Shown: in pieces, positions 2,026 to 18,947 of the stretch
Position numbering within the stretch: the first letter of the stretch is position 1
Layout: every line of letters begins with the position of its first letter
Assembly: GCA_964291675.2 (NCBI GenBank)
Contig: OZ219866.1
Span: forward strand, 2,368,001 to 2,432,000
Source of the DNA: Alphaproteobacteria bacterium
GTDB lineage: Bacteria; Pseudomonadota; Alphaproteobacteria; MPNO01
Direction of reading: 5' to 3'
Length of the DNA stretch: 64,000 bases
Program-made: the position numbers and the translations under genes
The notes under the pieces: model-generated
Seen by the model: the letters and a program-made list of their open reading frames with translations, nothing else
Databases searched by the model: none
What the model was told of the DNA's origin: nothing

Positions 2026-3027
2026 TCAGGACAGGGCGTCCTCGGCGAGCCGGCTCGCGAGCACCTTCTCGTAGCGGTAGTCGCCATAGGTCACCGGCTC
2101 GTATCGGATCGGGTTGCCGGGGCCGTGGCAGGTCTCGATGCAGCTTATCTCGACGTCGTGGCCGGGCTGGTGGAAGAAGGCGATGGAGAGCCGTTCGGCG
2201 TCGTCCTCGCTGCGCGGCGGGTTGACCACCCGGTGCAGGGTCGACACCCAGCGGTCGTTGGTCCAGCGCGCCATCATGTCGCCGATATTGACCACGAAGG
2301 CGCCTTGCGGCGGGCGCACGTCGATCCATTCGCCGTCGGGGGAGAGGGCCTGCAGCCCGCCCGGCCGGTCCTCGCCGTAGAGGACGGTCAGCGTGCCGTA
2401 ATCGGTATGGGCGCCGGCGCGAAGCTGGCCCGGCAGCGGCGCCTCTTTCTGGGCCATGTATTTGTTGAAGCGGATATGGCTGATCGAGCGCGCGATCTTG
2501 TCGTCGAACCAGCGCTCGTCGATGCCGAGCGCGATCGCGAAGATCCGCATCAGCTCGTCGCCGATGCCGTCGAGCGCCCGGTAATACGCCTCGAAGACCG
2601 GCCGCATCCGGGCCGGGCGCTCCGGCCACAGGTTGGGCGCGAAGAAGTCCAGCCCGTGGCCCCCGGTGTAGTAGGGATCGTCCGGCAGGTCGAAATCGCC
2701 CATGCCGAACACCTCCTGCAAGTCGGGCGGGGACTCGTTGCCGTGCGTGGCGGCGAGCTTCTGGTTCGCCGGCGGGTCGTAGCCCCTGGTCGCGGCGATG
2801 CGCGGTCTCGGGATCCGCATCTTCTCTTCCAGCGGCAGGGCGAAGAACTCGTAGGCGAGGTCGCGCGTCTCGCGCACCAGCGCGTCCGGGACGCCGTGGC
2901 CCACGACGGTGAAGAAGCCGATGGTCTCCAGCGCCTCGCCCACGCGCCCGGCGACAAGCCGCTTGCCCGCCGGATCGCCGGCGAGAACCGGCGCGATGTC
3001 GATCTCGGGAATGCGGTCCGATGCCAT
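2026..3027 (-). CDS. Isopenicillin N synthase-family Fe(II)/2-oxoglutarate oxygenase
   Basis: IPEIDIAP, GFFTVVGHGV, HTDYGTLT (HxD), STLHRV, RLSIAFF. Start placed at MASDR. Confidence 0.9.
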   Translation of the reverse strand: MASDRIPEIDIAPVLAGDPAGKRLVAGRVGEALETIGFFTVVGHGVPDALVRETRDLAYEFFALPLEEKMRIPRPRIAATRGYDPPANQKLAATHGNESPPDLQEVFGMGDFDLPDDPYYTGGHGLDFFAPNLWPERPARMRPVFEAYYRALDGIGDELMRIFAIALGIDERWFDDKIARSISHIRFNKYMAQKEAPLPGQLRAGAHTDYGTLTVLYGEDRPGGLQALSPDGEWIDVRPPQGAFVVNIGDMMARWTNDRWVSTLHRVVNPPRSEDDAERLSIAFFHQPGHDVEISCIETCHGPGNPIRYEPVTYGDYRYEKVLASRLAEDALS

Positions 3028-3267
3028 CCGAAGTCCTCTCCGCCCCGATCGAACCACGTTCGCCCGCGTCGGTTCAAGCCTAGCCCGCACTTCCCGCCAG
3101 GGTCACGGTCTGCGTCGCGCGCAGGCGTTCGATCCGCCAGGAGCGGGCCGAAAAGCGTAGCCGTGCCTACGGTCGAGGCCCGCGATGCGCAGACCATGAC
3201 CCTGGCGGGAAGTGCGGGCTAGCGCTTTGGCGTATCATCGGCGCGTCCGGTCCGATGGAGAGCCCGA

Positions 3268-4968
3268 ATGGCGATGCAGCCCCTCATCCATGCCACCCGC
3301 CACATGGTGAGCTCCGGCCACCATCTGGCGACCCAGGCGGGCTACGACGTGCTCGAAGCCGGCGGCAACGCCGTCGACGCGGGCGTCGCCGCCGGGATCG
3401 CGCTCGGCGTGGTGTACCCCGATCTGGTGCAGTTCGCGGGCGTCGCCCCGATCATGATCTACCTGGCCGAAGAGGACCGGGTCGTCACCGTCAGCGGGCT
3501 CGGCTGGTGGCCGCGCGCGGCCTCGCTCGAGCGCTTCGTCTCCGAGTTCGGCGGGCGCATCCCGGACGGCATCCTGCGCACCGTCGTCCCGGCCGCGCCC
3601 GATGCCTGGATCGCCGCGCTCGGGCGCTACGGCACGATGCAATTCTCCGAGGTGGCCGCCGCCGCGCTGCGCTATGCGGGCGAGGGGTTCTCGGTCCATC
3701 CTCCGCTCCGCAACAACCTCGCCGCCCATGCCGGGGAATACCGCCGCTGGCCGCAGAACCTCGAGATCTACCTGCCCGGCGGAGAGCCGCCCGCCCTCGG
3801 CGAGCGCTTCGTGCAGGCCGACCTCGCGGGCTCCATCCGCTACATGATGGACCAGGAGGCGGCGGCGCGCGGCGGCCGCGACGCCGGCCTCGCCGCCGCG
3901 CGCGATGCCTTCTACCGCGGCGACCTCGCCCGCGAGATGGCGCGCTACCACGCGGAGGTCGGCGGCTGGCTCACCATGGAGGACCTCGCCGGGTACCGCA
4001 GCGCGTTCGAGGACCCGGTGGTCGCCAGGCTCGGCGAGATCGAGCTTTTCACCTGCGGCGCCTGGTGCCAGGGGCCGGTCCTCGCCCAGATGGCGAGCCT
4101 GCTCGACGGACTCGACATCGCGGCGCTGGGCCACAACAGCCTGCCCTACGTGCACACCGTGACCGAGGCGATGAAGCTCTGCTTCGCCGACCGCGAACGC
4201 CATTACGGCGATCCGCGGTTCGTCGACGTTCCCCTCGCCCGTCTGCTGTCGCCCGGCTACAACCGGGAGCGCCGCGCCCTCATCCGCCCGGACGAGGCAT
4301 GGCCCGACATGCCGCCGGCGGGCGGAGAGGACGCCGTGGAAGCCGCCGGGGCGGAGGCCGGGACGTCGCCGGTGCCGGCATCCCCCGACACCTCCTATTG
4401 CTGCGCCGTCGACCGCGACGGCAATTGCTTCTCCGCCACGCCGAGCGACGTGTCGTTTCAATCGCCGGTCGTCCCCGGCACCGGGCTGTGTCCGTCGTCG
4501 CGCGGCTCGCAGTCCTGGGCGGTGCCCGGCCACGCGTCCTCGGTGGCGCCGGGCAAGCGCCCGCGGCTCACCCCCAACCCCGCCTTCGCGAGAATCCCCG
4601 GCCGCCTGGCGATGCCCTTCGGCACCCCGGGCGGCGACGTGCAGACCCAGGCGATGCTCCAGGTCCTGCTCAACGTCACGAGCTTCGGCATGACCGTCCA
4701 GGACGCGATCGAGGCGCCCCGCTTCGCGACCCACAGCTTCCCCAACTCGTTCGAGCCGCACGACGCGTTCCCCGGCCGGCTGGTCGTCGAGGATGGGATT
4801 CCCCGGCCCGTCGCCCGGGAGCTCGCCGCGTTGGGCCACGATGTCGAGCGGGTGGAAGATCGCTCGATCGGGATGGGCGCGGTCTGCGCGATCGGGCAGG
4901 ACCTCGGGACCGGGATCATGGAAGGCGGCGCCGATCCGAGGCGCATGAGCCGCGCGATGGGCCGTTGA
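3268..4968 (+). CDS. Gamma-glutamyltransferase family (Ntn-hydrolase) protein
   Basis: GGNAVDAGVAA, nucleophile Thr in PDTSY, PGKRPRLT, FGTPGGDVQTQ, GGADPRR. Confidence 0.9.
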   Translation: MAMQPLIHATRHMVSSGHHLATQAGYDVLEAGGNAVDAGVAAGIALGVVYPDLVQFAGVAPIMIYLAEEDRVVTVSGLGWWPRAASLERFVSEFGGRIPDGILRTVVPAAPDAWIAALGRYGTMQFSEVAAAALRYAGEGFSVHPPLRNNLAAHAGEYRRWPQNLEIYLPGGEPPALGERFVQADLAGSIRYMMDQEAAARGGRDAGLAAARDAFYRGDLAREMARYHAEVGGWLTMEDLAGYRSAFEDPVVARLGEIELFTCGAWCQGPVLAQMASLLDGLDIAALGHNSLPYVHTVTEAMKLCFADRERHYGDPRFVDVPLARLLSPGYNRERRALIRPDEAWPDMPPAGGEDAVEAAGAEAGTSPVPASPDTSYCCAVDRDGNCFSATPSDVSFQSPVVPGTGLCPSSRGSQSWAVPGHASSVAPGKRPRLTPNPAFARIPGRLAMPFGTPGGDVQTQAMLQVLLNVTSFGMTVQDAIEAPRFATHSFPNSFEPHDAFPGRLVVEDGIPRPVARELAALGHDVERVEDRSIGMGAVCAIGQDLGTGIMEGGADPRRMSRAMGR

Positions 4969-5046
4969 CCGCCGCCTGCCGCGCGCCCCCGGCAACAGGC
5001 CGGGCCAAGCTGTAGCGTCGAGGATCGATCGTAGAATCGCGTCGGT

Positions 5047-6078
5047 TCAGCCGGGCTTACGGGCCAGGAAACAGTAGAGCGGCGTGAATATGCCCATCTT
5101 GCCGCTCGCGACATAGGCTTGGGCCGTTCGCTCCATCAATTGGACAACGGCCGCGGAGCCCCTTGGAAATAGCCGGATCAGCTCCGCCATCCGCAGACCC
5201 GCGACCAACGCCTTGCGGCCCACGGGCGTTCTGCGAAATGCATTGCGCAATGTCCCGCTCCGGCTCTCCATGGGCCGATACCAGGGTATGCCCTGGCCTT
5301 CCCTGTTGTCCATATCCCGAGCCGCGATAACGTCGAATCCCGCGGCCTCAAGCGCGCAGTTCACCTCCGAGAACGTGGCGATGTCCTTCAGGGCAATTCC
5401 CAGCTTCAATTCTTCCTTGACGGTCCGGTGAAGGCGATCGCCGGGGTCGAACCTGTCCGTCACGCACATCTCCTGACCCCAGAACAGGGCCCCTGGTTTC
5501 AGCACACGATGGATTTCCGCAAATGCGCGCCTCTTGTCGGCTGCGTGGCAGGTCGACTCGATCGCATAACCCGCATCGAAAGAGCTCGGCTCAATCGCAC
5601 TCATATCCGAAAAGTCGCACTCGATGTACTCCGCCATGTCGTCGAGCCCCGTCTCGACGTTGATTCGCCTGGCCTTTTCCAGCTGCTGTGCGTTGTTGTT
5701 GATGCAGACAACCCTGGCGCCGCTTTCGCGGGCGACCCGCCGCATCGGACCGCCCACTCCGCAGCCAACGTCGACAATCACCATGCCTTCTCGCAATTCC
5801 AGCCGTTCGATCATCAGGCGTTGATGGCGGGCGATGGATTCCTCCAGCGATTCCTCGCGTGTCAACGGCGCGAAGTGCAGCGACTCGCCCCACCCGAATT
5901 GCATGAATTCGCTACACAAATCATAATATTCGTTCACCGTCTCGGCGACGTAACAGTCGATATCATCGGCATCGACCTGTCCCATTCCGTCAAACCGGCC
6001 TTCAAAATGTGCAACGCGACTCCCCACGTCCCAGCCTCGATAAACGCTCCACAGGGATTTGGAAAGACGCGTCGACAT
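5047..6078 (-). CDS. smt: Sterol C24-methyltransferase (SMT/ERG6-like), SAM-dependent
   Basis: All four SMT regions present: VNEYYD..FMQFGWGESLHFAP (I), VDVGCGVGGPMR (II), YAIESTCHA (III), KPGALFWGQEM (IV), plus the SMT-type C-terminus GIFTPLYCFLARKP. Visibly lower GC than the flanks. Confidence 0.85.
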   Translation of the reverse strand: MSTRLSKSLWSVYRGWDVGSRVAHFEGRFDGMGQVDADDIDCYVAETVNEYYDLCSEFMQFGWGESLHFAPLTREESLEESIARHQRLMIERLELREGMVIVDVGCGVGGPMRRVARESGARVVCINNNAQQLEKARRINVETGLDDMAEYIECDFSDMSAIEPSSFDAGYAIESTCHAADKRRAFAEIHRVLKPGALFWGQEMCVTDRFDPGDRLHRTVKEELKLGIALKDIATFSEVNCALEAAGFDVIAARDMDNREGQGIPWYRPMESRSGTLRNAFRRTPVGRKALVAGLRMAELIRLFPRGSAAVVQLMERTAQAYVASGKMGIFTPLYCFLARKPG

Positions 6079-6247
6079 CTGCCAAATGTCCTATCCTGAC
6101 TATTGATCATATCGCAGTCTGTCCGTATCGACTATCGCCACCTTCAGGCGGGGTCCTTTCCTCCTCGTCCCGTCAACGGCCGTTGCGGCACGGCCGCGCC
6201 TATGCCGTGCGGAGCGCCGATCGATCCCCGAGCGAACGGTATCGGGG

Positions 6248-7282
6248 TTATCCGGCGAGCGCCGGGCGGATGCGGTCGGCGATCAGGTCGATCGCCGCCA
6301 TGCGGTCGGGGCCGAGCACCTGGTAGAGCACCGGGGTCCTGAGCCCGGCGGCGGCGTAGGGCTTGAGCCCTTCGATGCACTCCTCCGGGGTGCCGGCGAC
6401 CGCGAGCGCGGCGACCACGTCGTCGTCGAGCGCATCGACCGCCCGTTCGTACCGGTCTTCGGCATACGCCGCCCTGAGCCCCGCCTGGAGGATCTGCATG
6501 CGAGCGACATCGAGGCCGGCGAACTCGAAGCGGATCGTGTCCGGGATGCGCATCAGGTAATGGGCGATCAGCCGCCTCGCGGCATCGCGCGCCGCATCGC
6601 CGTCCTCGTCGACCGAGAAGACGATGTATGAGGCGATGTCGATGTCCTCGATCGTGCGGCCGGTGCCGGCGAGCGCCGCGCGCACATGTCCCAGGCAGTG
6701 TTCGGCGAAGGCCGGGCTGGTGAAAACGCTGAAGAACACCCCGTCCGCCAGCGGGGCGGCCATCTTCAGCGTGCGCGGCCCCATGGTGCCGAAATAGAGC
6801 GGCACGTCCGCCCTCACCGGTGCGAAGGTGAGCCGCGCGCCCGGCGCGGGCAGGCGGTAGAGCGCGCCCTCGAAGGCCACGCGGTCGCCGCGCAGCATGC
6901 CCCGGCAGATCGCCGCCGCTTCCCTGAGCGCGGCAATCGGGCGCGGGTTCTCCAGACCGTGCGCCGCGATCGACGACCAGCCGGCGCCCAGCCCGAGGAC
7001 GAGGCGCGGGCCGGCGAGCTCCTCCAGATCGGCCACCGCCATCGCGATCTGCGCCGGGTGGCGCGTGTACGGGTTGACGATGCCGAGGCCGATCTCGATC
7101 GCCTCGGTCGCCGTGGCGATCGCGGTGGCCTGGACGAAGATGTCGCGGCTGTGGTGGTCCTCGGCAAGCCACAGCCTGCGAAACCCGCGCGCCTCGGCCC
7201 GCAGCGCCGCCGCGCGGTTGTCGGCGGTGGACGAGATGCTGTAGAGGCCGATCTCCAGCGCCTTGAACCGTGTCCCGGTCAT
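6248..7282 (-). CDS. LLM-class (luciferase-like/Mer-like) flavin- or F420-dependent oxidoreductase
   Basis: LWLAEDHHSRD, GIVNPYTRHP, LGLGAG, GTMGPRTL, AVAGTPEEC. Start placed at MTGTRF. Confidence 0.87.
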   Translation of the reverse strand: MTGTRFKALEIGLYSISSTADNRAAALRAEARGFRRLWLAEDHHSRDIFVQATAIATATEAIEIGLGIVNPYTRHPAQIAMAVADLEELAGPRLVLGLGAGWSSIAAHGLENPRPIAALREAAAICRGMLRGDRVAFEGALYRLPAPGARLTFAPVRADVPLYFGTMGPRTLKMAAPLADGVFFSVFTSPAFAEHCLGHVRAALAGTGRTIEDIDIASYIVFSVDEDGDAARDAARRLIAHYLMRIPDTIRFEFAGLDVARMQILQAGLRAAYAEDRYERAVDALDDDVVAALAVAGTPEECIEGLKPYAAAGLRTPVLYQVLGPDRMAAIDLIADRIRPALAG

Positions 7283-7302
7283 GCCGATCCTCCCCCGCGC
7301 CG

Positions 7303-8097
7303 TCACCTGGCGGCGAGCGCCCTCTCCACCTCCGGCCAGGCGCTCTCGTTGCGATCGCGCAGGAGGTCGTCGTAGCCGACGGGCGGGAACGCGGTGAAGG
7401 CGGCGTCGTAGGACGGCCGCGCGCGCAGCGCGTCGTACCAGGCCGCGACGCGCGGCAAGCCGTCCCACATCGGCGCGAGGCCGAGCCGGTCGAGGCGTTC
7501 CACATAGGGCGCGATGCAGGCATCGGCGAGCGAGAATTCTTCGCCCGCGAGCCACGCCCCCCGCGCCAGCGCGGCCTCCATGTCGTCCAGCATTCCGACG
7601 AACGCGATCACCGCGTCCCGGACGAAGTCCACGTCGAAGCCCCGCTCCATGATCTGGCGCTGGCGGGCGGCGCGGCGCGGGTCCGGCATGCCGTTCAGGC
7701 GGCGCTCCAGCGCGTCCTCGTCGAACCCGGCCTTGAGCTGGCGCGCGAAGGCGCTGGCGAAGGACACCGACGCGCAGTGCACGTGGATGCCGTCGTCCGG
7801 CACCCGCGCCCAGAGCCGCATCAGGGACCGCGCATACGGATCCTCCGGCCTGAGCGGCGGGTCGGGATAGGCATCGTCGAGGTATTCGCAGATCACCGTC
7901 GACTCGGTCACGATCCTGCCGCCGTCCACCAGCGCCGGCACCACGCCCTTGGGGTTGACGGCGAGATAGGCCGTCCCGGTCTGCTCGCCCGCCACCAGGT
8001 CGACGTGATGGCCGACCCAGTCGAGCCCCTTTTCCGCCAGCACGAGGCGGACCTTCTGGGCGCAGACCGAGATGTTGTGGTGATAGAGCTCAAGCAT
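7303..8097 (-). CDS. Glutathione S-transferase family protein (GDAP1/PcpC-like N-terminus)
   Basis: MLELYHHNISVCAQKVRLVLAEKG, NPKGVVPAL, TESTVICEYLDD, FSLADAC. Overlaps the stop of the upstream gene. Confidence 0.88.
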   Translation of the reverse strand: MLELYHHNISVCAQKVRLVLAEKGLDWVGHHVDLVAGEQTGTAYLAVNPKGVVPALVDGGRIVTESTVICEYLDDAYPDPPLRPEDPYARSLMRLWARVPDDGIHVHCASVSFASAFARQLKAGFDEDALERRLNGMPDPRRAARQRQIMERGFDVDFVRDAVIAFVGMLDDMEAALARGAWLAGEEFSLADACIAPYVERLDRLGLAPMWDGLPRVAAWYDALRARPSYDAAFTAFPPVGYDDLLRDRNESAWPEVERALAAR

Positions 8098-9049
8098 GAA
8101 TTTTGCTCCCCGCCGCCAGATCGAGCTGGTCGGCGGCGTTGTAGTTGGCGTCGTACCACCAGGCGAGGTGGTCGCCATAGACCACCGGCGGCCAGCGCGG
8201 CGGGTTGCCGGGACCCGCGCAGCTCGGCACGCAGCGGATCTCGGCATCGAGATCGGGGCCGAAGAAATAGGGGATCGCGTAGCGCCGCCGCCCGGCCGGC
8301 GGCAGCGCGCGATGCGGGGTCGATTTGTAGCGCCCGTTGGTCCAGCGGTGCAGCATGTCGCCGGTGTTCACGACATAGGAGTCCGCGACCAAGGGAACAT
8401 CCTCCCAGCCGCCCGCTTCGCGCCGGATCTGGAGTCCGGGCACGTCGGACTGCGCGAGGAAGGTCAGGAAATTGACGTCGGTATGGGGCGCGATGCCGTA
8501 GCGCCCCTCCTCGCGCGCCGCCGGCGGGTAGTGCGAGAGCCGGAAGGAGAACTGGCTCTGCGTGAAATGGGACGCGAACCAGTTTTCGGGCAGGCCGAGG
8601 GAGAGGGCGAGCGCCGGCAGCAGGCTCAGCGCCAGCCGATCCACCGCCCCGCAATACTCCAGCAGGGCCTCCCGGAACCCGGGCAAATCCGCCGGCCAGC
8701 GGTTGGGTCCGCCGAAGCGCCGGGCGGCCAGCGGATCGTCCGGGTCGCGCTCCCGCTTGATGAAGAACGCCTCGTTCATGTCCGGCAGCGCGGCTTCGCT
8801 GGCCCGCGAGGTGCGCACGTTGTAGCGCGCCATCGCCATGTAGCCGTTGTTGTGCTCGTTCATCAACAGGGCGCGCTTGGCCTCCATGGGCTGGGCGTGG
8901 AACCTCTCGGCTTCCGCGAACGCCCTGCGGATGAGCTCCTGCTTCACGCCGTGGTTTACGACGATGAAGAAGCCCACATTCTCCAGCGTCGCCGCGAGCG
9001 CGCCCGCCACCTCGGCCCGGCTGCGCGACAGGTCGATCAACGGAATCAT
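8090..9049 (-). CDS. Isopenicillin N synthase-family Fe(II)/2-oxoglutarate oxygenase
   Basis: MIPLIDLS after a GAGGAG RBS, GFFIVVNHGV, PHTDVNFLT, STPHRA, RYAIPYFFGP. Confidence 0.9.
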   Translation of the reverse strand: MIPLIDLSRSRAEVAGALAATLENVGFFIVVNHGVKQELIRRAFAEAERFHAQPMEAKRALLMNEHNNGYMAMARYNVRTSRASEAALPDMNEAFFIKRERDPDDPLAARRFGGPNRWPADLPGFREALLEYCGAVDRLALSLLPALALSLGLPENWFASHFTQSQFSFRLSHYPPAAREEGRYGIAPHTDVNFLTFLAQSDVPGLQIRREAGGWEDVPLVADSYVVNTGDMLHRWTNGRYKSTPHRALPPAGRRRYAIPYFFGPDLDAEIRCVPSCAGPGNPPRWPPVVYGDHLAWWYDANYNAADQLDLAAGSKIHA

Positions 9050-9070
9050 CGTCTCGTCTCCTCGTTCCGC

Positions 9071-9180
9071 CGTCCTTCGATACGCCCCCTTCGGGGGCAA
9101 CTCAGGATGAGGAGAGATCGGTATGGCCCAATAAGGCGCTCCTCGTCCCGAGTAGCGGCGAAGCTGCGGATCGAAGGACG
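9071..9180. repeat. REP doublet (REPIN-like), copy 2
   Basis: Same arms as copy 1 with a few mismatches and a 28-nt spacer. Sits inside a co-directional minus-strand gene run. Confidence 0.88.
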
Positions 9181-14731: not shown

Positions 14732-15817
14732 ATGTCCAAGCGAGGTTGGGGTTCCCTGTTGCGGTGGGCCACTCTGCCGCTGATCGCATGCTTCTTTTTC
14801 TCGTCCATTCCGGCCCAGGCCGAAAAGATCAGACTGAAGATTGCGTCGGGCCATAGCCCGGGCTGGCATTTCATCGAGCTTGCCCAGGATTACTTCGTCC
14901 CGGAGGTGAAGAAACGGGTGAAGGAGCGTACGAGCCACGAGATCGAATTCATCGAGGGGTTCTCCGGCTCGATGGTCAAGGCGACCGAGGTCCTCGAAGC
15001 AGTCCAATCCGGGATCATCGAAGTCGGCGTGTTCTGCATCTGTCACGAAGGCCAGAAACTCTCGATCCACAACTTTCCCTACTACCTGCCGTTCGGGCCG
15101 AGCGACCCGAACATTTCGGTCAAGGCGACGCGCATCGTCTACGACAAGAGACCCGAGTTGAACGAGGTGTTCACCAAGCTCGGCCAGCGGGTTCTCGGAC
15201 TCATTCCCTTCGAGCCCTACGATATCGTGTCGCGGTTTCCCATCGAGAAGGCGTCGGACGTGAAGGGACGCAAGATTGGCGCCGCCGGCCCCAATGCCTT
15301 CTGGGTTGCAAAGGCGGGCGCGCTTCCGGTCTCGGTGGGCGGTCCCGACATGTACACCTCGTTCCAGACCGGGCTGATCGACGCCATGCTGATCTTCCCC
15401 GGCGTCATGGATACCCTCAAGCTCTATGAGGTAGCGCCCTACCTGGTAAGGGTTGCGATCGGCTCGATGACCGTCGTTCCGGTGACGGTCAACAACCGCA
15501 GGTTCAATCGCTTGCCCAAAGAAGTGCAGGACATCTTCATCGAGGTCGGGCGCGACATGGAAGCCAAGGCCGGGCCGTTCACCACCGAGCTCGTCGCCAA
15601 GATCCTGAAGGTGCTCAAGGAGAAGGGCGTCAAGATCGTGAGCGTGAGCGACTCCGAGCGCGAAGCATGGTCAAAGATGCTGGTCGATGAGCCGGCCAAG
15701 ATCGCCAAGAAATTCGAGGCGGAGAGCAAACTACCTGTCACCGAGGTCATGAAGGCTTATATCGCGGCCACCGAGTCACTCGGGCACAAATGGCCGCGCA
15801 AAGCCAACCTGGACTAG
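14732..15817 (+). CDS. dctP: TRAP transporter substrate-binding protein
   Basis: Signal peptide ending AQA, LKIASGH, EVLEAVQSG, DVKGRKI, YTSFQTGLID, KLYEVAPY, LPKEVQDIF. Confidence 0.9.
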   Translation: MSKRGWGSLLRWATLPLIACFFFSSIPAQAEKIRLKIASGHSPGWHFIELAQDYFVPEVKKRVKERTSHEIEFIEGFSGSMVKATEVLEAVQSGIIEVGVFCICHEGQKLSIHNFPYYLPFGPSDPNISVKATRIVYDKRPELNEVFTKLGQRVLGLIPFEPYDIVSRFPIEKASDVKGRKIGAAGPNAFWVAKAGALPVSVGGPDMYTSFQTGLIDAMLIFPGVMDTLKLYEVAPYLVRVAIGSMTVVPVTVNNRRFNRLPKEVQDIFIEVGRDMEAKAGPFTTELVAKILKVLKEKGVKIVSVSDSEREAWSKMLVDEPAKIAKKFEAESKLPVTEVMKAYIAATESLGHKWPRKANLD

Positions 15818-15840
15818 GAACGACCGATACCATGCAGAGA

Positions 15841-15875
15841 GGGCGGGGAGGCGTTGCACCGTCTCCGCCCTTCTT
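15841..15875 (+). terminator. Hairpin after dctP (attenuating or mRNA-stabilising stem-loop)
   Basis: GGGCGGGGAGGCG...CGTCTCCGCCC followed by TTCTT, between dctP and dctQ. Confidence 0.4.
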
Positions 15876-15944
15876 GCGCGCGCCCGGCCGCTCCTTGAGC
15901 GCCCGGCGGTTCTCTGGCACCGCGCGCGCTTGCAAGGGACTGCC

Positions 15945-16466
15945 ATGAGAAAATTCCTGCTAGGAGTAGACGCTCTTACGAAGGCGATGATGATCTTCAC
16001 GGCGTTCTGCGCCTTGGGCATCGCCTTTCTGATCCTCGTCGAGGTCTTCGCGCGCAATGCGGGCCTGCAATTCTACGGCGCCGCCGAGTACATTCGGAAT
16101 TTTCTCATCGTGATCGTGTTCCTCCAGCTGCCGTTTGCCATTCGGGTCCGCGGCATGCTGGTCGTCGATATTTTCGTCGATAGCCTGCCGAAGCGTGCGG
16201 CCGTCCCGGTTTCCATTGTCGGCGATTTTCTGGGGCTTCTCTTCTTCGGCGCGGTGGCGGCCGGCTCCTTGGATCCCGCCATCGCAGCGTGGGTAGAGGG
16301 CCAATACGAAGGCGAAGGCGTCGTCGACGTGCCGGCATGGCCGGCGAAGTTCTCCATCGTGATCGGATGCGGCATCGCCGCCTTCTACTATTACGTGCGG
16401 ATTGCCGAGACGCTCAGGTCCGGAGAGATGGCTTCGCGTTCCAAGGGAACGCCGCCAGCAATTTAG
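15945..16466 (+). CDS. dctQ: TRAP transporter small permease
   Basis: Four hydrophobic segments, EVFARN, VVDIFVD, PAWPAKF; lies between dctP and dctM. Confidence 0.85.
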   Translation: MRKFLLGVDALTKAMMIFTAFCALGIAFLILVEVFARNAGLQFYGAAEYIRNFLIVIVFLQLPFAIRVRGMLVVDIFVDSLPKRAAVPVSIVGDFLGLLFFGAVAAGSLDPAIAAWVEGQYEGEGVVDVPAWPAKFSIVIGCGIAAFYYYVRIAETLRSGEMASRSKGTPPAI

Positions 16467-16475
16467 GAGTGGGTC

Positions 16476-17837
16476 TTGGAAGCGGCCGCCCCATATCTGC
16501 TCGTTTGTCTGCTGCTATTGCTCGTCTTTGCCGGGGTGGAAATTGCCGTTTGCCTTGGAATCGTCAGCTTCTTGGCGATGTACAGTGCAACGCAGGATCT
16601 CGGTATTTCGCTGTCGTTCCTGAACAGCACCGCTTACGAGGCGCTGCGCCAATATCTGTTCGCCGTGGTGCCGCTATTCATCCTCATGGGACAGTTCATT
16701 GCGCAATCTGGTGCCGCAGCCGACCTATACCGGGGGATCGACCGCTGGCTACACCGCATTCCGGGTCGCTTTGCCTACGCTACCGTTCTCGGCAATGTGG
16801 TGTTCGCCTTCGTGACGGGCACGAGCCTCGCCTCGGCCACGACCTTTACCGCCATCGCCTATCCGCAAATGAAGGAAGCCGGCTACAACCGGCACTTTTC
16901 GCTCGGCCTGGTCAGCGGCAGCGCGTGCCTCGGCATGCTGATCCCGCCAAGCCTGCTGATGGTCGTGTGGGGTATTTTGACCGACCTTTCCATCGGCCAC
17001 CTTTTCATCGCCGGCGTGATTCCCGGATTCATACTGGCGGCGCTCATGATGGCTTACATCTTCGCAGTTACGCTGATTCGGCCTGACCTTGTCGGTCAAG
17101 GCAACGGTCAGGGACAGTCAGTGCCTGACGACGCCGATGCCGTTGCCGAGCATGGATCGGCGAGCACGCGGCCCGAGCCCACCTCGCTCGACATGACCAT
17201 CAGCTTGACGGGCCTGCTCGCGATAATGATCGGGGCGCTTGGAGGAATCTGGGTCGGGTTCTTCACGCCGACCGAAGGGGCCGGCATCGGCGCGCTCATC
17301 GCCCTCGTCGTCGGCATCGCGAAGGGTATGCGCTGGCCGGCAATCTATGAGACCGTTCTGCTCGCCGCCCGTACGGCCATTCCACTGATGATCATTGTTT
17401 TCGCCGCTCAGCTGTACTCGCGCACGCTGGCCATGAGCGGAATCGGGCTGACCCTGCAGGGCACGATCACCGGAAGCGGCCTGCCGGAATGGGGGATCGT
17501 TCTGTTCATGATCTTCATCTGGCTGGTGCTCGGCACGCTGATCGATTCGATCTCGATCATGCTGCTGACGGTGCCGATCTTCGGACCGGTTGCGCTCTCA
17601 CTGGGGATCGATCCGCTGGTCTTCGCGATCGTTGGGATCCTGACGATCGAGGCCGGTCTTCTAACCCCGCCTTTTGGATTGATCGTGTACGCGGTGCGGT
17701 CCGTCATCCCGACCGAGAACGTGTCCATGAAGGCCATCTTCGCGGGTTCGACGCCGTTTTGCGTCATTCTGCTGGTCACCATCGCCATCATCTTGACGGT
17801 GCCGGAGACGGTGACATTCCTGACGAGGCTGATTTGA
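16476..17837 (+). CDS. dctM: TRAP transporter large permease
   Basis: VPLFILMG, GMLIPPS, FTPTEGAG, GLLTPPFG. TTG start after AGGAG. Confidence 0.92.
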   Translation: MEAAAPYLLVCLLLLLVFAGVEIAVCLGIVSFLAMYSATQDLGISLSFLNSTAYEALRQYLFAVVPLFILMGQFIAQSGAAADLYRGIDRWLHRIPGRFAYATVLGNVVFAFVTGTSLASATTFTAIAYPQMKEAGYNRHFSLGLVSGSACLGMLIPPSLLMVVWGILTDLSIGHLFIAGVIPGFILAALMMAYIFAVTLIRPDLVGQGNGQGQSVPDDADAVAEHGSASTRPEPTSLDMTISLTGLLAIMIGALGGIWVGFFTPTEGAGIGALIALVVGIAKGMRWPAIYETVLLAARTAIPLMIIVFAAQLYSRTLAMSGIGLTLQGTITGSGLPEWGIVLFMIFIWLVLGTLIDSISIMLLTVPIFGPVALSLGIDPLVFAIVGILTIEAGLLTPPFGLIVYAVRSVIPTENVSMKAIFAGSTPFCVILLVTIAIILTVPETVTFLTRLI

Positions 17838-17921: not shown

Positions 17922-18947
17922 ATGAAAGCGATGGTGCTCTACGACCGGGAGAAGCCGTTCCGCCTGGAGGAGCGCCCGGAGCCGCGCGCCGGCATGGGAG
18001 AAGCCGTGATGCGGGTGCGCGCGGCCGGGGTGGGGCTCACGCTGGTCAACATGCGGCTCGGCCGGATGGGCGGCTCGCTGCCGCGCGTCATGGGTCACGA
18101 GCTGGCGGGCGAGATCGTCGAGACCGGCGAGGGGGTGAGCGCGATCTCGGTGGGCCAGCGCTGCGCGGTCTATTTCTACCTCACCTGCGGGCGCTGCCGC
18201 TGGTGCCGCGGCGGGCGCGAGACGCTGTGCGAGAACTTCGCCGGCTTTGTCGGCGGCGACCGCGACGGCGGGTTCGCCGAATATGTCTGCCTGCCGGCCG
18301 AGAACTTCTTGCCCATCCCCGACGGCTTGTCCGACGAAGCGGCCGCCGTGGCCGCCGATGCCGTCAACACCAACTGGCACTGCATGCGCGAACGCGCGCG
18401 GATCGACGCGCACGACACGATCCTGCTGATCGGCGCGGGCGGCGGTGTCGGCATTCACGGCGTGCAGGTGGCGCGGCTGTTCGGCGCGCGGGTGATCGCC
18501 GCCGACGTGTCGGAGGAGAAGCTGGACCTCGCCCGAAGCTGGGGGGCGGAGGAGACGATCGACGTCCGCGCGGTGGACGATGTCGCGGCGGAGGCGAGGC
18601 GGCTGACCGGGGGGCGCGGCGTCGATGCCGCGGTCGACTATGTCGGTCACGGCGAGACCTTCCAGGCGGCGATCGACAGCCTCGCGACCTCGGGCCGGGC
18701 GGTGGTGATCGGCGTCGGCACGGGCAAGGCGAGCATCGATCCGTTCCGGCTGGTCCGCACCGAGCAGATCGTGACCGGCTCGCGCCACTCGACCCGCGCC
18801 GAGCTGATCGAGACGATGGAGATCATGGCGCGCGGGCTGGTCGAGCCCGTGGTCGGGATGCGGGTGCCGTTCGAGGAGGTGGAAATCGTCTTCGATGCGC
18901 TCAGGAGCGAAACCCTGCTCGGCCGCGGCGCGCTGACCTACCCCTGA
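17922..18947 (+). CDS. Zn-binding medium-chain dehydrogenase/reductase (alcohol dehydrogenase family)
   Basis: GHELAGEI, structural-Zn motif CGRCRWCRGGRETLC, GAGGGVG. The usual GxCxxD reads GVGLTL. Confidence 0.88.
   Translation: MKAMVLYDREKPFRLEERPEPRAGMGEAVMRVRAAGVGLTLVNMRLGRMGGSLPRVMGHELAGEIVETGEGVSAISVGQRCAVYFYLTCGRCRWCRGGRETLCENFAGFVGGDRDGGFAEYVCLPAENFLPIPDGLSDEAAAVAADAVNTNWHCMRERARIDAHDTILLIGAGGGVGIHGVQVARLFGARVIAADVSEEKLDLARSWGAEETIDVRAVDDVAAEARRLTGGRGVDAAVDYVGHGETFQAAIDSLATSGRAVVIGVGTGKASIDPFRLVRTEQIVTGSRHSTRAELIETMEIMARGLVEPVVGMRVPFEEVEIVFDALRSETLLGRGALTYP

Follow-up and report, generated by a model that had tools for sequence, protein, structure and literature searches.

Why should a bacterium with no apparent route to sterols carry a gene of the sterol-methyltransferase type? 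The question is posed by a stretch of 64,000 nucleotides (hereafter, the window) from Alphaproteobacteria bacterium (GenBank assembly GCA_964291675.2, contig OZ219866.1, positions 2,368,001 to 2,432,000 of the forward strand). An open reading frame (ORF) on its minus strand, at window positions 5047-6078, had initially been annotated from the DNA letters as a stand-alone, eukaryote-type sterol C-24 methyltransferase (SMT) with non-canonical motif residues. The gene is ordinary in its architecture, and bacterial SMTs are already known (Brown et al. 2023); what is notable is its active-site signature, its occurrence in carriers that lack a cyclase, and the linkage of its relatives to genes for a fusion of GPP34 and cytochrome P450 domains (GPP34-P450). 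The reading that we prefer, and consider reasonably probable, is that it encodes a C-methyltransferase for the side chains of sterols from outside the cell, probably from a host.

The ORF starts with ATG and runs through 343 codons without interruption. Its product combines the two features of the SMT superfamily, a Methyltransf_11 domain (residues 102-199; 67.1 bits in Pfam) with the DxGxGxxGP motif that binds S-adenosylmethionine (SAM), and a Sterol_MT_C domain (PF08498; residues 280-342, positions 5053-5241, minus strand; 59.5 bits against a cut-off of 21.7), which is the single match to this model in the whole genome. The complete SMT/ERG6 architecture claimed initially is thus borne out. 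Only class I methyltransferase domains are present, and neither the radical SAM nor the B12-binding domain of hopanoid methylases was found; the hopanoid methylases HpnP and HpnR are radical SAM enzymes. An NCBIfam scan of the protein gave 31 weak matches and none above its cut-off. The best match among solved structures is MitM, which is not an SMT (81.6 bits, covering residues 45-198 only), and no SMT structure was present among the solved structures searched. Neighbors of the protein in the ESM Atlas are sterol methyltransferase clusters. A grouping with tocopherol methyltransferases or RebM-type enzymes, named by the initial annotation as an outcome that would speak against it, was not seen in the Pfam, structure, tree, or ESM Atlas comparisons.

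The departures from the eukaryotic consensus read in the translation as they had been described. Region I, the sterol-binding region of SMTs, is MQFGWGESLHF (positions 5872-5904; this and the following motifs are on the minus strand): in yeast numbering, M, Q, F, and L stand in place of Y81, E82, Y83, and F89, and G84, W85, G86, H90, and F91 are retained. Region II, the SAM-binding motif, is canonical (DVGCGVGGP, residues 103-111, positions 5746-5772), and neither the subclade described below nor the canonical set shows any variation at its D, G, G, G, and P. Region III, IESTCHA (positions 5542-5562), retains the equivalent of yeast E195 and has S in place of A; Region IV, KPGALFWGQEM (positions 5467-5499), retains G217 and has QEM where canonical enzymes have YEW, within what proved to be a subclade signature, WGQEMC.

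A word-index search returned 2,247 homologues. The best 120 of these, for which details were obtained, are all 312-393 amino acids long and all contain PF08498; the 119 other than the query are 65-88% identical to it, and the few source names among them are of a "methyltransferase" from metagenome-assembled genomes (MAGs) of Rhodospirillales or Gammaproteobacteria. An exhaustive search of representative sequences yielded 8,611 matches at E<=0.001 and 253 at E<=1e-30. For phylogenetic analysis we combined the query, five locus translations, five family members, and 102 full-length representatives, leaving out four sequences whose motif regions looked broken (P0161, P0191, P0217, and P0227). In the resulting tree of 113 SMT-family sequences, which is not anchored by named sequences from fungi, plants, or sponges and leaves 46 of its 110 inner branches open, the query falls into a clade of 15 sequences with full support (SH-aLRT 100) and a stem of 0.69; deeper relations among the other SMT lineages are not resolved. 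The protein is 30-45% identical to full-length canonical representatives outside the subclade, a set of representatives without eukaryotic names. The designation "eukaryote-type" therefore stands for the architecture and fails for the relatives, since all close ones found are bacterial.

The clade is recognizable by the signature MQFGW.ESLHF, IESTCHA, and WGQEMC. Among 129 clade sequences, M59 and L67 of Region I are present in all 129, Q60 in 117, and F61 in 118, and seven residues of Regions III and IV (E174, S175, W200, Q202, E203, M204, and C205) are each present in 129/129. Canonical representatives have Y at the M59 position (87%), F at the L67 position (88%), and W at the M204 position (87%). 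We also compared the clade with 98 canonical representatives, in which 48 columns reach at least 80% conservation: 36 of these columns are unchanged in the clade, among them the SAM motif, H68, E174, G196, and W266, and 12 are different. These comparisons strongly support placing the gene in a subclade of bacterial SMT-superfamily members that is distinct and highly conserved, and motif deviations conserved throughout the clade fit a specialized substrate or product. The unusual chemistry suggested initially (other regiochemistry, multiple methylation, or cyclopropanation) is conceivable. The ratio of nonsynonymous to synonymous substitution rates (dN/dS) between the gene and its nearest relative, at locus L003 of a MAG titled Defluviicoccus sp. 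(88% identity), is 0.26, next to 0.22 and 0.18 for the syntenic genes for gamma-glutamyltranspeptidase (GGT) and a 2-oxoglutarate (2OG) oxygenase; other pairs within the clade give 0.28-0.32. Judged by these ratios, the gene is under purifying selection.

How did such a gene come to be in this genome? It had been noticed as visibly poorer in GC than its surroundings, and the figures agree: its GC content is 59.8% (0.598), below that of the window (0.691) and of the genome (0.694), its GC at third codon positions is 0.73 compared with 0.85-0.95 in neighboring genes, and only 2.5% of genome windows of the same 1,032 bp (n=9,315) are as GC-poor. Besides L003, the named carriers of the clade are two more alphaproteobacterial or unclassified MAGs (77-78% identity) and six MAGs of Candidatus Dadabacteria or Thermodesulfobacteriota (58-60% identity). 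In all nine the GC content of the gene lies between 0.57 and 0.63, with flanks at 0.49-0.51 in the Dadabacteria-type carriers and 0.65-0.69 in the alphaproteobacterial ones. Across 52 de-duplicated metagenomic loci, the gene ranges from 0.54 to 0.67 and the flanks from 0.44 to 0.70, with a slope of 0.37 (r = 0.67). Distribution close to home is patchy. An SMT-family match at E<=1e-30 is present in 12 of the 78 genomes from the order of the source genome; in its genus (12 genomes, the source included), the clade-type SMT, scoring about 640 bits, occurs in only three (G000, G026, and G027), a second SMT type (324-340 bits) in seven, split pieces in one, and neither in two. The unusual composition, a GC content that follows the flanks only in part, the spread over distant phyla at 58-88% identity, and the patchiness in the genus together support the proposal, already made in the initial annotation, that the gene was horizontally acquired, and they indicate that the clade as a whole has spread in this way.

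We then asked what the source genome could offer such an enzyme as a substrate. The genome consists of two contigs (4.8 Mb in total; the window lies in the 3.66-Mb contig), and marker genes put it at 93.7% completeness and 6.67% contamination; because of this degree of completeness, absences are strong evidence, if not absolute. Its one triterpene cyclase, at 2.92 Mb of the contig designated C2, is a squalene-hopene cyclase (TIGR01507, 753 bits, cut-off 431) with a DTDDTA motif; against the oxidosqualene cyclase (OSC) model TIGR03463 it scores 265 bits, far below the cut-off of 851. Triterpene-cyclase model searches found no OSC in the genome, and neither a squalene epoxidase (SE) domain nor an ERG4/ERG24 homologue was found there. 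There are eight P450 matches, none of them within the window. The squalene/phytoene synthase family (SQS_PSY) is represented by three full-length matches and one partial one, and SQS_PSY-family genes adjoin the squalene-hopene cyclase. Thus, neither the genome nor the surroundings of the SMT gene contain the OSC or SE expected of a de novo sterol cluster, and the earlier statement that the window holds no sterol-synthesis gene can be extended to the genome, where the search for an OSC that had been proposed returned only the hopene cyclase.

The same holds for most other carriers. Only one of the nine named carriers has a triterpene cyclase, and SQS_PSY is absent from 6 of the 10 genomes searched (the nine carriers and the source), namely from all six Dadabacteria and Thermodesulfobacteriota carriers, four of which are single "chromosome: 1" records equal in length to the listed genome size. 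Since the source genome and most carriers are unable to cyclize oxidosqualene, the substrate is most likely external and probably a host sterol. What these genomes do share is a set of partner genes. All nine named carriers have a GPP34 gene with a long reading frame, and six have ERG4/24. The GPP34-P450 fusion lies directly beside the clade SMT at L003, L004, and L006, and the Dadabacteria-type loci flank it with a Rieske/KshA_C oxygenase, an MMPL transporter, an ERG4/ERG24 reductase, an NAD-binding/3beta-hydroxysteroid dehydrogenase (3beta-HSD)-like plus DUF2867 protein, and a glutathione S-transferase (GST). In the Thermodesulfobacteriota MAG G007, two further SMT-family genes, ERG4/24, GPP34-P450, and a flavin amine-oxidase-like gene lie upstream of the clade SMT.

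G007 deserves a description of its own. This single-chromosome MAG (loci L030 and L009) has three SMT-family genes, two of which have FCERGWGKSIHF as Region I. The approximately 25 kb that contain them also hold ERG4/24, GPP34-P450, a flavoprotein, MMPL, a KshA-like Rieske gene, and transposases. Its genome, of 2.1 Mb, lacks both a triterpene cyclase and a squalene/phytoene synthase.

Scanning metagenomes with the clade alignment, we kept 80 loci from 89 relatives; they belong to the series MKWU01 (26 loci), LXNI01 (16), LXNJ01 (14), Ga0209754 (8), Ga0209021 (5), Ga0209543 (3), Ga0209544, Ga0209022, and JGIcombinedJ30088 (2 each), and JGI24796J26693 and JGI24797J26694 (1 each). According to the text of two papers (PMC10070321; 10.64898/2025.12.19.695621), LXNI01, LXNJ01, and JGIcombinedJ30088 are metagenomes of Sarcotragus foetidus, Petrosia ficiformis, and Aplysina aerophoba; these demosponge series account for 32 of the 80 loci. 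The loci were searched by tblastn with the partner proteins over flanks of up to 6 kb a side and de-duplicated to 68, of which 37 have at least 3 kb on both sides. Among these 37, a GPP34-P450 fusion occurs near the clade SMT in 19 (within 350 bp in 16), a KshA-like Rieske gene in 15, MMPL and a flavoprotein in 5 each, and an SE-OSC fusion and ERG4/24 in 1 each; any of the listed steroid-themed or partner genes is present in 23. Pfam analysis gave, for example, LolA-like, MMPL, SMT, GPP34-P450, and Rieske genes at L056; AcrB, GPP34-P450, SMT, tetratricopeptide repeat, Rieske, and flavoprotein genes at L047; and, at L099, an SE-OSC fusion, a second-type SMT, the clade-type SMT, and GPP34-P450. 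At L074 and L046, where there is no steroid-themed neighbor, the surrounding genes are unrelated.

We defined a gene set by the presence of a GPP34-P450 fusion or a KshA-like Rieske gene no more than 6 kb from a clade-type SMT. The window does not contain it: the P450 is absent at about position 4977, and the partners lie some 307 kb away on the same contig. There, at C2:2,679,805-2,688,951 (L027:7805-16951), are genes for a GST, GPP34-P450 (685 amino acids), a flavin amine-oxidase-like protein, a LolA-like protein, MMPL, and a Rieske/KshA_C protein. Genes of these kinds flank the clade SMT in other bacteria; without the GST, the partners span C2:2,680,891-2,688,951. The best solved matches of the P450 part are CYP51 structures (67 bits, E 1e-17), with other P450 families close behind, and those of the Rieske protein are 3-ketosteroid 9alpha-hydroxylase oxygenases (KshA; 80.9 bits). 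The source genome also has a second, short GPP34 gene, at C2:1,198,773-1,199,369.

In the window, the pairing of the SMT gene with a P450 gene is broken at one junction. Locus L003 and the window are collinear at 91-94% nucleotide identity, apart from 2.4 kb that L003 has in addition between GGT and the methyltransferase. In blastn alignments, window positions 3222-4976 correspond to L003 13141-11381 and positions 4978-6130 to L003 8969-7817, which places the indel junction at about 4977 (4976-4978). The extra segment of L003 encodes a GPP34-P450 fusion (L003:9216-11378).

A link between the GPP34-P450 fusion and sterols comes from a congener. In the closed genome G028 (L031:7957-19602, within C1:1,243,001-1,263,000), GPP34-P450 is followed by an SMT, an SE-OSC fusion (1,147 amino acids), a P450, a Rieske/VanA_C protein, and a 3beta-HSD-like protein, which appears to be a de novo sterol cluster. 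The SMT in this cluster is of the second type, with canonical FYEFGWG...FHF and YEW motifs, and the GPP34-P450 is the orthologue of the source-genome copy (74.7% nucleotide identity). We regard this linkage as stronger evidence than the similarities to CYP51 and KshA. The second-type SMT of congeners is 47% identical to the clade type, and in 6 of the 12 genus genomes it stands beside an OSC-like gene that scores 713-747 bits (cut-off 851; hopene cyclases score 220-270). Because OSC-like genes are present in these six and the source genome has none, only a clade-type SMT, the genus evidently holds species with and without apparent de novo sterol clusters. In one more congener, G031 (C17:203,436-207,718), the second-type SMT is in two pieces and the OSC-like gene is reduced to the C-terminal 130 positions; the locus looks like a decaying sterol cluster.

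Taken together, these observations point to an active SAM-dependent C-methyltransferase of the ERG6/SMT superfamily, encoded by positions 5047-6078 and belonging to a subclade that passes horizontally between host-associated (apparently sponge-associated) bacteria. By homology, the enzyme would transfer the methyl group of SAM to an isolated double bond (C=C) in the side chain of a sterol, and the resulting carbocation would be quenched by deprotonation. The residues on which this mechanism depends are retained (H68, yeast H90; E174, yeast E195; and the SAM motif). The sterol substrate, its exogenous origin, and the standard SMT mechanism are all inferred from sequence and genomic context; some relatives do have an OSC cluster, and there a sterol intermediate could be the substrate instead. 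The enzyme is one member of a recurrent set, comprising GPP34-P450, a KshA-like Rieske protein, a flavin amine-oxidase-like protein, MMPL, and a LolA-like protein, that is split in the source genome. The earlier suggestion that the product edits host or dietary sterols thus gains indirect backing from context: eight of nine carriers lack a cyclase, 6 of 10 genomes lack SQS_PSY, and steroid-themed neighbors recur.

A bolder version of this reading is that the SMT, GPP34-P450, Rieske protein, flavoprotein, and MMPL/LolA-like proteins form a horizontally shared module by which cyclase-less sponge bacteria of several phyla take up host sterols and rebuild the side chains, that the altered sterol-binding regions confer a regiochemistry or substrate choice new among tested SMTs, and that GPP34-P450 is a sterol enzyme. 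We put this forward tentatively, as a possibility that is rather doubtful in its full extent. Under it, methylation might occur at C-26 or C-28, for example, or saturated side chains might be desaturated by the partner oxidases before being methylated.

Several observations weigh against a sterol substrate of external origin. Brown and Welander (2025; 10.64898/2025.12.19.695621) list, in the text considered here, 25 residues conserved in all functional SMTs: Y74, T78, GWGxxFHF, DxGxGxxGP, G147, Q154, D189, E195, G217, G268, W286, G333, L341, G352, F357, and P359. With yeast numbering assigned by motif offsets onto that list, the protein (P0001) departs from it at three of the 25, T78S (S56), F89L (L67), and G147C (C125); L341 maps ambiguously to L314 or M315, and the rest of the list is present. 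In addition, G86, which P0001 keeps, is replaced by N or S in most of the clade. According to the same text, a different residue at a listed position may be the mark of an SMT inactive on desmosterol or 24-methylenecholesterol, or of one requiring other sterols. The clade-wide changes at the yeast G147 position and within Regions I and IV suggest a specificity for substrate or product unlike that of the tested C-24 methyltransferases. The source genome makes hopanoids, as its squalene-hopene cyclase and SQS_PSY-family genes indicate, and an endogenous triterpenoid is for this reason a possible substrate there. There is no steroid-themed neighbor in the window, and 14 of the 37 metagenomic loci have none of the listed partner genes near the clade SMT. 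The similarities to CYP51 and KshA are weak, and the co-occurrence with GPP34-P450 could be due in part to a shared habitat, since the fusion is reported to be common in sponge symbionts (PMC11706023). Evidence of expression is a weak hint: one RNA-library run (X23) contains a 213-nucleotide contig within the gene (two differences), two pieces of about 60 nucleotides, and a 32-nucleotide piece in GGT, and we do not count these as evidence of transcription because DNA carry-over is possible. Finally, in the passages and spreadsheets compared, no biochemical data on members of the subclade were identified.

Could the enzyme act on something other than a sterol? An SMT fold may have been recruited for a non-sterol small molecule, within a cassette that would tailor or detoxify a natural product of the host or of microbes. 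The departures from the functional-SMT residues would fit this view, as would the 14 of 37 loci without a steroid-themed neighbor, the weakness of the CYP51 and KshA similarities, and the generic nature of MMPL/AcrB pumps. We nevertheless think it unlikely: Sterol_MT_C is retained with a good score, the Dadabacteria-type islands contain ERG4/24 reductases, the clade SMT is embedded in the SE-OSC cluster of L099, and the partner P450 sits inside the sterol cluster of G028. Alternatively, the substrate could be an isoprenoid made by the cell itself, such as squalene, hopene, or the unsaturated side chain of a hopanoid; algal SMT-like triterpene methyltransferases act on non-sterol isoprenoids of this kind. 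On the one hand, the source genome has a squalene-hopene cyclase (753 bits) next to SQS_PSY-family genes and no OSC, and the sterol-binding Regions I and IV are altered. On the other hand, eight of the nine other carriers have no cyclase and six no squalene/phytoene synthase, yet the enzyme is conserved in them at 58-60% identity with the same signature, and the neighbors in relatives are steroid-type genes, not hopanoid (hpn) genes. A substrate of this kind is a distinctly poor prospect.

The remaining explanations would leave nothing for the enzyme to do, or no gene at all. That it is a functionless remnant, left after the loss of a sterol pathway still present in congeners, is very unlikely: the frame is intact, its dN/dS of 0.26 is near that of neighboring housekeeping-type genes, and all catalytic and SAM-binding residues are retained. 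Decay does have precedents in the genus, where 6 of 12 genomes have an OSC-like gene beside the other SMT type and the G031 locus is split and fragmentary, and the adjacent P450 is missing in the window. However, the SMT in the congener clusters is of the other type (47% identity), and many genomes without a cyclase still carry the clade type. A chimeric assembly or contaminating sequence, to which the deviant GC content and the 6.67% contamination of the genome might point, is highly improbable. The gene lies in a 3.66-Mb contig, and in sequencing run X1, which contains 86% of sampled words, exact contig pieces cover GGT, the gene, and the monooxygenase at an even depth of 16.9-22.5. One of these pieces (5882-6293) extends across both the start of the gene and the point at which synteny ends (6208); X1 may be the source sample, and its support is to this extent not independent. 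The order of GGT and methyltransferase also recurs in the independent MAG with L003 and in a relative strain (90-95% likeness) in run X3, which is labeled as a sponge metagenome and comes from another study, whose contig diverges from the window right after 4976, as L003 does. The chimeric assembly that the initial annotation had named as a danger left no sign in these data; the read continuity it called for was found at the gene start and the 6208 side and was not found at 4977, which no listed piece bridges. We therefore return to a sterol side-chain methyltransferase acting on exogenous sterols as our preferred reading.

How does the gene compare with systems already described? The closest are the bacterial SMTs of sponge and environmental metagenomes (PMC10070321; 10.64898/2025.12.19.695621), of which, in the text of the first study, 20 of 24 methylate desmosterol and/or 24-methylenecholesterol; among the SMTs assayed in the two papers (34 by our count, 24 in 2023 and 10 in 2025), seven with deviating residues are described as inactive. 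The present clade resembles those enzymes in its two-domain architecture, bacterial origin, and presence in demosponge series, and in some SE-OSC clusters (L099). It is separate from them in having M/Q/F for Y/E/Y, L for F, QEM for YEW, and C for G147, and in lying mostly outside sterol-synthesis clusters (1 of 37 loci inside). None of the names of our 80 metagenomic contigs is shared with records named in the text of the two papers, and a search of the spreadsheets of the 2023 study yielded neither sequences nor record names. The nearest functional parallel in the same study is the SMT of a Chlamydiae MAG that has no sterol synthesis, an enzyme that methylates sterols in vitro and for which host-acquired sterols were proposed as the substrate (PMC10070321). 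Both are SMTs in bacteria without other sterol-synthesis genes; the chlamydial enzyme, as described there, is active on desmosterol and 24-methylenecholesterol and keeps the functional residues, whereas the present clade keeps only part of them.

With the eukaryotic enzymes ERG6, SMT1, and SMT2, the protein shares the SAM motif, G84/W85/H90/F91, E195, G217, and the C-terminal domain; it differs from them at 12 of 48 conserved columns and in residing in a genome without a sterol pathway. Another eukaryote-like sterol enzyme in a bacterium that does not make sterols is the delta-24 sterol reductase of Coxiella, a host-sterol-modifying enzyme of an intracellular bacterium. It belongs to a different enzyme family; ERG4/24 homologues occur here in the Dadabacteria-type carriers and not in the source genome.

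GPP34-P450 proteins have been described before as GPP34_L, exclusive to sponge symbiotic bacteria, with a proposed role in evading phagocytosis by binding phosphatidylinositol 4-phosphate (PMC11706023, Microbiome 2025). The partner gene beside the clade SMT has the architecture described there; in the present data it is associated with SMT genes and, at two loci (G028 and L099), with a sterol cluster of the SE-OSC kind. The words "sterol" and "methyltransferase" are absent from the main text of that paper, and GPP34, Golgi, P450, Rieske, and MMPL are absent from the text of Brown et al. 2023 (PMC10070321). A full-text literature search for GPP34 with cytochrome P450, bacteria, and sterol found nothing, and one for sponge-symbiont SMT, OSC, or host sterol found only the Brown papers to be relevant. 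The link between the clade SMT and GPP34-P450 thus appears to be new in print, as far as the texts searched show.

Side-chain-alkylated steranes are read as biomarkers of eukaryotes, specifically of sponges, a practice that bacterial SMTs already complicate. The present clade extends the issue to bacteria that seem unable to make sterols and yet keep one to three SMT genes along with reductases, oxygenases, and lipid transporters. Because bacteria of this kind keep SMT genes, the potential for bacterial sterol alkylation cannot be judged from OSC clusters alone. The clade also provides a candidate pool for the still-unidentified enzymes behind unusual sponge sterol side chains, and for structure-function studies it is a natural experiment, with conserved substitutions at positions known to influence which product an SMT forms. 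It offers a concrete alternative function for a fusion reported to be exclusive to sponge symbionts. If the shared-module proposal were true, part of the unconventional sponge sterols, and hence of the sterane biomarkers, would be made by bacteria from host sterols, and GPP34-P450, a published phagocytosis-evasion candidate, would be a sterol enzyme.

In the window itself, the neighbors of the SMT gene are a 2OG oxygenase, GGT, a luciferase-like monooxygenase, a GST, a second 2OG oxygenase, a creatininase, and an M20 peptidase. The GGT gene (positions 3268-4968, plus strand; PF01019, 331.6 bits) is the convergent neighbor and is syntenic with L003 at 93% nucleotide identity; we do not think that it is functionally linked to the methyltransferase. 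Upstream of the SMT gene, a non-coding stretch (6079-6208, minus strand), mostly conserved with L003 (blastn blocks 4978-6130 and 6133-6208), reaches to the end of synteny at 6208 and probably holds the gene's own promoter; a scan of positions 4700-6500 for sigma-70 consensus promoters and for terminators gave no matches. The monooxygenase ORF (6248-7555, minus strand) overlaps the GST ORF (7303-8247, minus strand) by about 250 bp, and its true start is probably farther downstream because the Pfam match begins at residue 109. The two DIOX_N/2OG-Fe(II) oxygenase genes (2026-3090 and 8090-9100, both on the minus strand) are paralogous, and around them are many genes for small-molecule enzymes (tautomerase, GGT, luciferase-like monooxygenase, GST, creatininase, M20 peptidase, and DUF1194). 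A second GC-poor island (14732-17837, plus strand; 0.60-0.63 compared with 0.69) encodes the DctP, DctQ, and DctM components of a tripartite ATP-independent periplasmic (TRAP) transporter and is followed, in sequence of normal GC content, by a zinc alcohol dehydrogenase gene (17922-18947).

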